Shown piece after piece: positions 15,154-61,863 of a DNA stretch of 64,000 nucleotides. The position numbers and the translations under genes were made by a program. This stretch comes from Tequatrovirus NIC06P2: the sequence record OZ035760.1; one strand, 5' to 3'. Positions within the stretch are counted from its first letter, which is position 1; each line of letters starts with the position of its first letter. The notes below the pieces were generated by a model, which worked only from the letters and a program-made list of their open reading frames with translations, was not told where the DNA came from and made no database searches.

Positions 15154-15166
15154 AATATTTCCTCAG

Positions 15167-15174
15167 TATAAATA
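15167..15174 (+). promoter_or_regulatory. Late promoter TATAAATA upstream of uvsW
   Basis: Exact consensus 30 nt before the uvsW ATG. Confidence 0.55.
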
Positions 15175-15203
15175 TAGATATATTTATTACATGGTATTTA
15201 GAC

Positions 15204-16715
15204 ATGACTGACATTAAAGTACATTTTTATGATTTTAGTCACGTGAGAATTGATTGTGAAGAAAGTACATTTCATGAACTCCGTGATTTCTTTAGCTTTG
15301 AAGCTGATGGGTATCGTTTTAATCCGAAGTACAGATATGGCCACTGGGATGGACGAATCCGTCTTTTAGATTATAATCGTCTTCTTCCATTCGGCTTAGT
15401 CGGGCAAATTAAAAAGTTCTGTGATAACTTTGGCTATAAAGCCTGGATTGACCCACAAATTAACGAAAAAGAAGAATTATCAAGAAAAGATTTTGATGAA
15501 TGGCTTTCTAAATTAGAAATCTATTCAGGAAATAAAAGAATTGAACCGCACTGGTATCAAAAAGATGCAGTGTTCGAAGGATTAGTTAATCGTCGTAGAA
15601 TTCTTAATCTTCCAACATCTGCAGGTAAATCTTTAATTCAAGCTTTGCTTGCACGTTATTATTTGGAAAATTATGAAGGTAAAATTCTTATCATTGTTCC
15701 AACAACTGCTCTGACAACTCAGATGGCTGATGACTTCGTCGACTATCGTTTATTCAGCCATGCAATGATAAAGAAAATTGGCGGCGGAGCATCAAAAGAT
15801 GATAAATATAAAAATGATGCACCAGTCGTTGTTGGTACATGGCAAACTGTAGTTAAACAACCAAAAGAATGGTTCTCACAGTTTGGAATGATGATGAATG
15901 ATGAATGCCATCTTGCTACAGGAAAAAGTATTTCATCTATCATATCAGGTTTAAATAACTGCATGTTCAAATTCGGTTTGTCTGGTTCATTACGTGATGG
16001 CAAAGCCAATATCATGCAGTATGTTGGAATGTTTGGTGAAATATTTAAGCCAGTAACGACTTCTAAATTAATGGAAGATGGACAAGTAACTGAGCTAAAA
16101 ATTAATAGTATTTTTCTTCGCTATCCCGATGAGTTCACTACTAAATTAAAGGGAAAAACTTACCAAGAAGAAATAAAAATTATTACTGGGCTCAGTAAAA
16201 GAAATAAATGGATCGCTAAATTAGCTATTAAGCTTGCGCAAAAAGATGAAAACGCTTTTGTCATGTTTAAACATGTATCGCATGGTAAAGCTATTTTCGA
16301 TTTAATTAAAAATGAATACGATAAAGTTTATTACGTATCAGGGGAAGTTGATACCGAAACCCGCAATATAATGAAAACCTTAGCTGAAAATGGTAAAGGA
16401 ATAATTATAGTAGCGAGTTATGGTGTATTTTCTACTGGTATTTCAGTTAAAAATCTGCATCATGTTGTTTTAGCGCACGGCGTTAAATCTAAAATTATCG
16501 TATTGCAAACAATCGGTCGTGTATTACGTAAGCATGGTTCTAAAACAATCGCAACGGTCTGGGACCTCATAGATGACGCGGGCGTAGTTTCTAAATCAAA
16601 AACATCTTCTAAAAAATACTCGCATTTAAACTATCTTTTAAAACATGGACTTGATCGTATTCAGCGTTATGCTGATGAGAAGTTTAATTATGTGATGAAA
16701 GAGGTTAAACTTTGA
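15204..16715 (+). CDS. uvsW: UvsW SF2 DNA helicase
   Basis: 503 aa, helicase motifs PTSAGKS and DECH, recognised as T4 UvsW; late promoter upstream. Confidence 0.92.
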   Translation: MTDIKVHFYDFSHVRIDCEESTFHELRDFFSFEADGYRFNPKYRYGHWDGRIRLLDYNRLLPFGLVGQIKKFCDNFGYKAWIDPQINEKEELSRKDFDEWLSKLEIYSGNKRIEPHWYQKDAVFEGLVNRRRILNLPTSAGKSLIQALLARYYLENYEGKILIIVPTTALTTQMADDFVDYRLFSHAMIKKIGGGASKDDKYKNDAPVVVGTWQTVVKQPKEWFSQFGMMMNDECHLATGKSISSIISGLNNCMFKFGLSGSLRDGKANIMQYVGMFGEIFKPVTTSKLMEDGQVTELKINSIFLRYPDEFTTKLKGKTYQEEIKIITGLSKRNKWIAKLAIKLAQKDENAFVMFKHVSHGKAIFDLIKNEYDKVYYVSGEVDTETRNIMKTLAENGKGIIIVASYGVFSTGISVKNLHHVVLAHGVKSKIIVLQTIGRVLRKHGSKTIATVWDLIDDAGVVSKSKTSSKKYSHLNYLLKHGLDRIQRYADEKFNYVMKEVKL

Positions 16716-17404
16716 ATTATAAATTAATATACGATAATTTAATTAATAGAGCCCAGAATCGGGCTCGCCTTAATGGATACACTGAAACTCATCATATAAT
16801 TCCTAGATGTATGGGCGGTACAGATGATAAGTGTAATTTGGTAGAACTAACAGCTGAAGAGCATTTTATAGCTCATAAACTTTTAGCTAAAATTCATCCA
16901 AACCATTACGGTATAATTAAAGCCGTTATATGTATGGGGATGAATTCAAAGACTCATGAAAGACACGTTAATAAATCTTACGCCTGGGAACGTCGTAAAA
17001 TGGCAGAACTTCAATCAGGTGAAGGTAATCCATTTTACGGAAAACACCATACGGAAGAACATAAACAATATATGTCAAAACTCATGAAAAATCGTCCAAT
17101 TACGTGGGGAAGTAAAATTAGTAAAACTAAAAGAATGAACCCAACAAAATGGACTGAAGAAGCTAAAAGATTGCATTCTATCAATCAATCAGGTAAAAAT
17201 AATGGCATGTATGGAAGGAAACATTCCGCTAAATCTATTCAGAAAATTAAAGATAACATGCCAGATAATTCAGGAGCTAATAACCCAGCTGCTAAACCTA
17301 TAGAAGTAAATGGTGTTAAGTATAAATGCATGAAAGATGCTTCTAAAGCTACTGGATTATCAATGTACAAACTAAGAATACTTAGAAAAACAGTTAATTT
17401 ATAA
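16712..17404 (+). CDS. Free-standing HNH homing endonuclease with NUMOD3-like repeats; probable TTG start
   Basis: 230 aa; HNH motif THHIIPRCMGG...NLVELTAEEHFIAHK; repeats NPFYGKHHTEEHK and NNGMYGRKHSAKS; no ATG before codon 35. Confidence 0.8.
   Translation: MNYKLIYDNLINRAQNRARLNGYTETHHIIPRCMGGTDDKCNLVELTAEEHFIAHKLLAKIHPNHYGIIKAVICMGMNSKTHERHVNKSYAWERRKMAELQSGEGNPFYGKHHTEEHKQYMSKLMKNRPITWGSKISKTKRMNPTKWTEEAKRLHSINQSGKNNGMYGRKHSAKSIQKIKDNMPDNSGANNPAAKPIEVNGVKYKCMKDASKATGLSMYKLRILRKTVNL
16712..17404 (+). mobile_element. Free-standing homing endonuclease gene inserted between uvsW and uvsW.1
   Basis: HNH endonuclease ORF at a junction where, as I recall, T4 has no such gene. Confidence 0.6.
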
Positions 17405-17416
17405 GGGCTTCGGCCC
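17405..17416 (+). other. GC hairpin GGGC-UUCG-GCCC immediately after the HNH gene stop
   Basis: 4-bp GC stem with UUCG loop, then TTT and the uvsW.1 RBS. Confidence 0.4.
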
Positions 17417-17429
17417 TTTGGAGAAAAAG

Positions 17430-17624
17430 ATGTTACTAGGATTTAAACAATTTCTTTATGAAGCTTCTATTGATGAATTTATGGGTAAAATTGCCTCTTG
17501 TCAAACATTAGAAGGTTTAGAAGAACTTGAAGCTTATTATAAGAAAAGAGTCAAAGAAACTGAATTAAAAGATACTGATGACATCTCTGTAAGAGATGCT
17601 TTGGCAGGAAAAGAGCTGAATTAG
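17430..17624 (+). CDS. uvsW.1: UvsW.1-like small helical protein
   Basis: ORF track starts at TTG 17418; ATG 17430 with RBS GGAG at 17420-17423 preferred; position matches T4 uvsW.1. Confidence 0.6.
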   Translation: MLLGFKQFLYEASIDEFMGKIASCQTLEGLEELEAYYKKRVKETELKDTDDISVRDALAGKELN

Positions 17625-61847: not shown

Positions 61848-61863
61848 GAGGGCTTCGGCCCTC
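61848..61863 (+). other. Hairpin GAGGGC-UUCG-GCCCUC between genes 37 and 38
   Basis: 6-bp stem with UUCG loop, no clean U-run. Confidence 0.45.

Follow-up and report, generated by a model that had tools for sequence, protein, structure and literature searches.

The closest described counterparts of the gene treated here are found among the free-standing homing endonucleases of bacteriophage T4. T4 MobE is a free-standing HNH homing endonuclease whose gene lies between nrdA and nrdB; mobE has no promoter, and the nick made by its product falls in a polymorphic region of nrdB (PMC2790892, PMC2988022), while a hairpin within mobE has been shown experimentally to act as an internal terminator limiting transcript levels (PMC2790892). 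A further T4 endonuclease, SegE, targets uvsW (PMC2988022). The present work concerns an open reading frame (ORF) situated at the junction of the uvsW helicase gene and uvsW.1 in a 64,000-nucleotide stretch of Tequatrovirus NIC06P2 DNA (sequence record OZ035760.1; the whole stretch is referred to as the window). With a probability of roughly 0.85, this ORF represents a free-standing gene that has settled at the uvsW/uvsW.1 junction and encodes an HNH homing endonuclease belonging to the T4 Mob family. The gene and the parts of its product are located as follows.

16712-17404, plus strand: probable HNH homing endonuclease ORF, 230 aa, TTG start, taken from the ORF list and from profile and BLASTP matches.
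16790-16876, plus strand: HNH catalytic motif, residues 27-55, HHIIPRCMGGTDDKCNLVELTAEEHFIAH, placed by an alignment of 64 homologues.
16991-17077, plus strand: first NUMOD3 motif, residues 94-122, the best stretch of PF07460.
17180-17359, plus strand: residues ~157-216, comprising the second NUMOD3 motif, the linker strand and the helix-turn-helix, placed by likeness to 1I3J.

The predicted protein matched PHROG 655 'homing endonuclease' with E=1.6e-61 over residues 1-217, and Pfam NUMOD3 (PF07460) in two stretches with E=7.7e-14 and 51.8 bits against a cut-off of 20.4. BLASTP comparison with the Mob sequences taken from the T4 record gave 52% identity to MobE (106 aa, E=5e-32), 59% to MobD (75 aa, E=1e-25), 44% to MobB (136 aa, E=1e-26) and 45% to MobC (107 aa, E=1e-19). 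All four of these proteins begin with MNY, as does the ORF product when its TTG is read as Met. The HNH motif reads HHIIPRCMGG...CNLV...EEHFIAH, and the residues Y3, H28, P31, G36, N42, E50, H51 and H55 are invariant in the 64 aligned homologues, H27 being nearly so. The C-terminal part resembles the DNA-binding domain of I-TevI: PDB entry 1I3J was matched by residues 157-216 (phmmer E=0.006), the Pfam I-TevI_DNA-bd profile gave E=0.03, and 1i3j_A was the top Foldseek match of the structure model (E=0.067, probability 1.00, TM(target) 0.52), in which a beta hairpin (196-203) is followed by helices 206-213 and 217-226. Because of these profile, BLASTP and alignment results the product is interpreted as a Mob-type nuclease fused to an I-TevI-type module, that is, a predicted HNH nuclease domain of the T4 Mob family followed by a C-terminal I-TevI-like DNA-binding module (NUMOD3, NUMOD3, helix-turn-helix). 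This uncharacterised endonuclease of Mob type is probably active. The preliminary description, which was made from the letters of the window, had already proposed an HNH/NUMOD3 endonuclease of Mob type, and the PHROG 655, NUMOD3 and Mob matches bear this out; of the three NUMOD3-like repeats and the helix-turn-helix tail that it listed, two repeats and the tail were recovered, while the third repeat (GANNPAAKP) received no NUMOD3 score and aligns with the linker strand leading into the I-TevI-type helix-turn-helix.

The comparison with MobE showed a likeness that is not limited to the 52% identical nuclease domain, the MNY N-terminus and the HNH motif. In both cases the start overlaps the stop of the upstream gene, a promoter of the gene's own is lacking, a GC-rich hairpin occurs at codons ~13-19, and a polymorphic patch in a neighbouring conserved gene separates carriers from non-carriers. 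The differences concern the site and presumed target, which is nrdB for MobE and uvsW here; the size, MobE having 141 aa and no DNA-binding half in contrast to the 230 aa with NUMOD3 and helix-turn-helix found here; and the start, which is an ATG placed in an intergenic spacer in mobE but a TTG embedded in the last codons of the host gene in the window. MobB, MobC and MobD share with the present protein an N-terminal HNH domain, free-standing genes and the same direction as the neighbouring genes, but their C-terminal regions are unrelated, no 5' internal hairpin is present and they reside at other loci. The label 'mobD' in the PST record thus reflects nuclease-domain similarity only and not orthology. 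In the alignment with I-TevI (PDB 1I3J/1T2T), residues 157-216 correspond to its minor-groove helix and helix-turn-helix, and the modular arrangement of nuclease, linker and sequence-tolerant DNA-binding module is common to both enzymes; I-TevI differs in its GIY-YIG nuclease and in being intron-encoded. I-HmuI is another NUMOD3-containing endonuclease, but no match to it was obtained in the sequence or fold searches. Related HNH proteins of Vibrio phage ICP1 showed 40% identity over residues 1-99.

The endonuclease gene does not simply lie between two genes but has been inserted into uvsW itself, within its five final codons. The insertion site is defined by the following elements.

15204-16715, plus strand: uvsW helicase gene, 503 aa, given as uvsW or DNA helicase in T6, PST and ZN18; the insert contributes the final four codons and the stop.
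16701-17389, plus strand: inserted segment of 689 bp, defined against empty-site phages.
16701-16715, plus strand: re-coded uvsW tail, GAGGTTAAACTTTGA, which encodes E V K L stop in place of T V N L stop and holds both GAGG and TTG.
17390-17404, plus strand: original uvsW tail, ACAGTTAATTTATAA, T V N L stop, which now forms the last four codons and stop of the endonuclease.
17405-17416, plus strand: native junction hairpin, GGGCTTCGGCCC (GGGC-TTCG-GCCC), followed by TTT.

The boundaries were obtained from the alignment with empty-site phages that had been suggested at the outset, and they are ambiguous by GAAA(A), a microhomology found at both ends. The empty junction reads ...TACGTAATGAAA / ACAGTTAATTTATAAGGGCTTCGGCCC, which may also be written ...GTAATGAAA / ACAGTTAATTTATAAGGGC; the left side of the occupied junction reads ...TATGTGATGAAA / GAGGTTAAACTTTGAATTAT, or ...GTGATGAAA / GAGGTTAAACTTTGAATT, and its right side ...CTTAGAAAA / ACAGTTAATTTATAAGGGC. 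The displaced uvsW tail is read through by the endonuclease frame, the protein ending in ...RKTVNL, and the endonuclease uses the old uvsW stop, the native hairpin and the uvsW.1 ribosome-binding site. The sequence 17390-17404 is identical to the uvsW 3' end of LH2, OES_C-2, JEP6 and teqskov, and the T4 reference matches this region except for a known sequence error just before the hairpin. Downstream of the hairpin follow GGAG (17420-17423), the ribosome-binding site of uvsW.1, and the uvsW.1 ATG at 17430. The GC hairpin had been described as standing between the stop of the endonuclease and this ribosome-binding site, and its position is correct; the hairpin is, however, native to the junction and was found in carriers and endonuclease-free phages alike. 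The order uvsW, endonuclease, uvsW.1 is kept on the plus strand throughout, and since both flanking genes are complete ORFs no splicing is needed and the gene is free-standing. The anatomy of the locus shows ways in which a junction devoid of spare intergenic DNA may take up a selfish gene with damage to neither neighbour, by means of a re-coded host tail, a borrowed stop and hairpin, a coupled weak start and a conserved attenuator hairpin.

The distribution of the gene is patchy. A megablast search with uvsW through uvsW.1 returned 745 phage records, in only 48 of which the endonuclease was covered, and a synthetic empty-site query aligned with 500 Tequatrovirus records, 48 of them in two pieces (occupied) and ~452 in one piece (empty). 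Carriers include T6, PST, ZN18, HY03, ACG-C40 and UFV-AREG1, whereas the site is empty in T4, LH2, OES_C-2, JEP6 and teqskov; about 10% of the sequenced Tequatroviruses carry the gene. The view that the gene is wedged between two genes adjacent in T4 agrees with the uninterrupted junction of T4 and ~450 others, and with 48 carriers among ~500 Tequatrovirus records and an empty site in T4 the gene proved to be an insertion and not a universal junction gene. The same 693-nucleotide coding sequence is annotated in the T6, ZN18 and PST records. The TTG start was kept in all nine Tequatrovirus copies that were read, and 81 nucleotides around it showed no more than two mismatches in 48 of the 48 carrier records. 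Eight of the nine copies read were intact at 230 aa, with at most five amino-acid differences. The copy of Escherichia phage BF15 (MW822007.1, coding sequence 1041-1628) is frameshifted at codon 160 and may be degenerating; its product of 195 aa has neither the second NUMOD3 motif nor the helix-turn-helix.

The gene is always accompanied by a diverged allele, about 110 nucleotides long, of the adjoining end of uvsW.

16586-16694, plus strand: diverged uvsW 3' tract, composed of block A (16586-16623) and eight fixed synonymous sites (16628-16694).

In the last 150 nucleotides of uvsW the window differs from the empty-site phages T4, JEP6 and teqskov at 37 positions (~25%), compared with ~1-2% differences in the rest of uvsW and essentially no excess in uvsW.1. 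Block A reads VVSKSKTSSKKYS in carriers instead of VKPKSANTKKKYV. When 900 nucleotides of eight carrier and five empty-site loci were compared, the only fixed sites were the eight third-position synonymous changes between 16628 and 16694; with LH2 and OES_C-2 left out, 29 fixed sites were obtained, all within 16586-16694. The carrier allele of block A occurs in exactly 52 records, namely the 48 carriers and LH2, OES_C-1, OES_C-2 and OES_C-3. In these last four the site is empty, and a block A of carrier type (VVSKSKTSSKKYS) is combined with empty-type sequence in the last 70 nucleotides, a pattern that a crossover, or a short conversion tract stopping before the gene, could produce, and they would be useful as natural chimeras for target mapping. 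In the phage collection searched, no uvsW C-terminal allele outside the 52 records came closer to the diverged tract and could be named as its donor. A similar picture was found in Jiaodavirus, where comparison of Roth16, a carrier, with pKp20, whose site is empty, showed 38 differences over the last 697 nucleotides of uvsW, 30 of them within the last ~150 nucleotides and almost all of these silent, and 4 differences in uvsW.1; homology is resumed in the uvsW tail. The segment 16586-16694 is the best candidate for a target or immunity region and for a co-conversion tract, and the candidates for the cut site are block A, the cluster of silent sites, or the junction itself that is interrupted by the insert.

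The opposite end of uvsW offers a comparison. In T4, T6, PST and LH2 segE is found between inh and uvsW; in the window the inh-uvsW spacer (15154-15203) measures 50 bp and is, as had been noted before, empty of segE. The first 150 nucleotides of uvsW (15204-15353) contain 39 differences that track the presence of segE and divide the phages into T4, T6, PST and LH2 on the one side and the window, ZN18, JEP6 and teqskov on the other, so that the 5' end of uvsW in the window is the segE-minus allele. This SegE-linked tract has the same signature as the 3' tract and serves as an internal positive control for its analysis. All four combinations of presence and absence of segE and of the junction endonuclease exist; outside the two tracts uvsW of the window differs from that of T4 (empty) at 18 positions and from that of T6 (carrier) at 24, and these similar distances, together with the four combinations, indicate that the two elements move independently of the backbone. 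At either end of uvsW there is an endonuclease insertion site, independent of the other and accompanied by a diverged tract of its own. SegE is like the junction enzyme in being a mobile endonuclease flanking uvsW whose presence is tracked by a diverged uvsW tract of ~150 nucleotides beside the insertion, but it belongs to the GIY-YIG family, is placed at the 5' end of the gene and is absent from the window.

Full-length homologues of 55-70% identity were found in Klebsiella phage Roth16, Escherichia phage PSD2002, MT446411, Morganella phage Rgz1 and four metagenome contigs, and in all nine lineages (the window and these eight) the gene stands between uvsW and uvsW.1. The Klebsiella T4-like phages are also patchy in this respect, 23 records giving 60-80% identity, with Roth16 as a carrier and pKp20 as an empty-site phage. 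In MT446411 uvsW ends in ...VIKQVEI-stop and the endonuclease in ...LIKQVEI-stop, flanked by a 19-nucleotide direct repeat; in PSD2002 the corresponding ends are MKEVQI-stop and MKQVDL-stop. Since the C-terminus of the endonuclease copies the UvsW tail in several lineages, the embedded design with its duplicated tail characterises the clade. Pattern scans of IMG/VR for start-codon variants and for further junctions yielded no more than 2 and 3 contigs, which did not suffice for population statistics. There is about an even chance that the junction endonucleases constitute a Mob subfamily of their own, which keeps to this site and has a conserved cassette composed of a re-coded host tail with ribosome-binding site, a non-ATG start that is tolerated or preferred (five of the nine lineages), a covarying attenuator hairpin and a duplicated host tail, and that, if the enzymes cut the uvsW 3' end, the site would be an undescribed marker-exclusion locus of a classic phage system. 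Were the 3' end of uvsW the target, phages of T6 type would exclude uvsW/uvsY-region markers of T4 and T2 in crosses, and uvsW would have an unrelated endonuclease directed against each of its ends, SegE on the one side and the junction enzyme on the other.

The frame of the gene, closed directly upstream by TAA (16706-16708) 3 nucleotides before the TTG, contains no other canonical initiator ahead of the HNH motif than TTG 16712-16714. This codon overlaps the uvsW stop TGA (16713-16715) as TTGA and is preceded by the Shine-Dalgarno sequence GAGG (16701-16704) at a distance of 7 nucleotides. It aligns with the invariant initiator Met of the MNY sequence in T4 MobB, MobC, MobD and MobE, and the orthologues at the same junction start at the same position with TTG (four of nine lineages), ATG (four) or GTG (one), overlapping the uvsW stop in every case. 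The preliminary description had stated that the 230-aa frame opens without an early ATG, that TTG 16712 is its start and that this codon overlaps the uvsW stop 7 nucleotides after GAGG; the ORF list confirms the first point, the Mob alignment, the orthologue starts and the nine copies read support the second, and the third is read in the sequence as claimed. Its placing of the first ATG at codon 35 holds if counting begins at the opening of the frame; counted from the TTG, this ATG (16811) is codon 34, within THHIIPRC/MGG. GAGG at 7 nucleotides before the start, encoded by a K-E-V tail, was found in three of the four TTG lineages (the window and two others), and a Shine-Dalgarno sequence is absent from most of the ATG-start lineages. 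This distribution suggests that a strong ribosome-binding site makes up for the weak start codon, and that re-coding of the UvsW tail served to provide that site. Overlapping stop-start arrangements, and a GUG start for mobA, are described for T4 endonucleases (PMC2988022), and the start arrangement found here thus fits known practice. A UvsW-endonuclease fusion formed by frameshifting was also considered and rejected, because TAA 16706-16708 closes the frame, a slippery motif is absent and orthologues have a plain ATG.

The signals for transcription and the downstream gene are listed below.

15167-15174, plus strand: T4 late-promoter motif, a perfect TATAAATA in the inh-uvsW spacer, found by motif scan.
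16749-16766, plus strand: GC-rich internal hairpin, GAGCCC-AGAATC-GGGCTC, codons 13-19, found by folding.
17430-17624, plus strand: uvsW.1, 64 aa in the window, shortened by an A-run (17609-17612) that is one base shorter.

The motif scan revealed no consensus promoter belonging to the endonuclease itself, and TATAAATA at 15167 is the likely source of a uvsW-endonuclease-uvsW.1 transcript, its use being predicted from the motif. Two matches of 7/8 to the late-promoter motif occur inside the endonuclease gene, TATAAATT at 16718-16725 and TATAAATG at 17321-17328, the latter 109 nucleotides before the uvsW.1 ATG. A late promoter for uvsW.1 embedded in the gene was rejected, since TATAAATG and TATAAATT are 7/8 matches that are not conserved across lineages. 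The internal hairpin is the best local fold (-13.3 kcal/mol) and was matched by none of 200 shuffles. As MAFFT placed the stems out of register (the loop lengths differ and there is a 3-nucleotide offset), hairpins were assessed per lineage with shuffle controls; all nine junction lineages and T4 mobE proved to have such a hairpin at this place, the stem sequence differing from one to another, whereas T4 mobB, mobC and mobD have none. In position the 16749-16766 hairpin is homologous to the internal intrinsic terminator of mobE.

Taken as a homing endonuclease gene, the ORF would be transcribed late, together with uvsW, from the TATAAATA promoter at 15167. Its translation would be low-level and coupled to the termination of uvsW through the TTGA overlap and the weak TTG, and expression would be further damped by the mobE-like hairpin at codons 13-19. 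In a mixed infection the enzyme would nick or cut the uvsW 3' region of a co-infecting phage without the gene, and repair from the carrier genome would copy in the gene and the diverged uvsW tract, the carrier being protected from its own enzyme by the silent differences of the tract or by the interruption of the site. Several points weigh against this reading. Of the HNH and NUMOD profile matches that had been anticipated, NUMOD3 lay above its cut-off, while the Pfam HNH match (E=0.0079, 16.8 bits) remained under the curated cut-off of 21.4 bits. No clear U-run follows the stem of the internal hairpin (GCCUUAAUGG), so that a terminator function is not assured. The diverged tract could be the result of passive hitch-hiking from a foreign donor, in which case the target need not lie inside it, and the frameshifted BF15 copy indicates that the gene is dispensable. 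Moreover, no published description or test of the junction endonuclease was found in the literature searched.

It is conceivable, if unlikely, that the gene is a decaying or inactive relic, which once homed and is now carried passively without cutting, as are T4 mobA and I-TevIII. The weak start codon, the shortened BF15 product and the occurrence in only ~10% of genomes would agree with such a state; the intact length and near identity of eight of the nine copies read speak against it, as do the catalytic H, N and H residues, which are invariant in the 64 homologues. Furthermore, nine lineages at 55-70% identity keep full-length ORFs at the same site, which points to continuing selection for function or to repeated homing. 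A domesticated or weaponised nuclease, kept for damaging co-infecting relatives or some other target or for supporting UvsW recombination rather than for its own spread, is very improbable as the whole explanation, although it is not mutually exclusive with a selfish role. Phage homing endonucleases that can aid competition or the amplification of anti-defence genes are on record (PMC13096335), related HNH proteins occur in ICP1, and the gene lies within the uvsW/uvsY recombination cluster with late co-transcription predicted; yet the patchy 10% distribution and the tightly linked conversion tract form the classic signature of selfish homing, and nothing found here indicated a host-beneficial role. 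Initiation at the internal ATG of codon 34 (16811), which would give a 197-aa protein, can be dismissed almost entirely as the true start, for although this is the first ATG in frame and is so annotated in the GenBank records FL08 (PP400785.1) and W143 (MZ189262.1), such a start would deprive the HNH motif of its HH, and with it of the invariant H28, would leave aside 33 conserved codons that correspond in the alignments to the N-termini of T4 MobB-E and the ATG-start orthologues, and has no Shine-Dalgarno sequence, the preceding sequence being ATAATTCCTAGATGT.

The homing endonuclease gene is labelled 'homing endonuclease' in T6, ZN18 and other GenBank records and 'mobD' (with the note 'MobE') in PST, and in view of this annotation the gene itself is not a new discovery. 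In the UFV-AREG1 paper both flanking genes are given as 'UvsW helicase' and the gene between them is unmentioned. The kind of gene is well known, and the anatomy described here is tidy and testable, not surprising to a specialist. It adds to the T-even system a Mob-type endonuclease that is present in the laboratory phage T6; homing, marker exclusion in the uvsW/uvsY region and the predicted target could be approached by crosses of T6 with T4 or T2. It also explains annotation problems, namely starts at an internal ATG that cut off the catalytic histidines, and uvsW and uvsW.1 labelled as the halves of a split helicase. In several GenBank records uvsW.1 is named 'DNA helicase' or given as the 'C-terminal part' of UvsW, a mislabelling that goes back to an old error in the T4 sequence, which NC_000866 still contains.

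As regards uvsW.1 in the window, the A-run at 17609-17612 is A4, compared with A5 and a 76-aa product in 12 other Tequatrovirus loci. The frameshift removes the acidic tail RAELEDSDDEVEESF; either the product is truly shortened or the homopolymer was misread in sequencing. A second CTTCGGCCC core, within a GAGGGCTTCGGCCCTC hairpin, was observed at 61853-61861 of the window, after a gene stop and before a ribosome-binding site and ATG; it is of the same intergenic style with a UUCG loop as the hairpin at 17405-17416.

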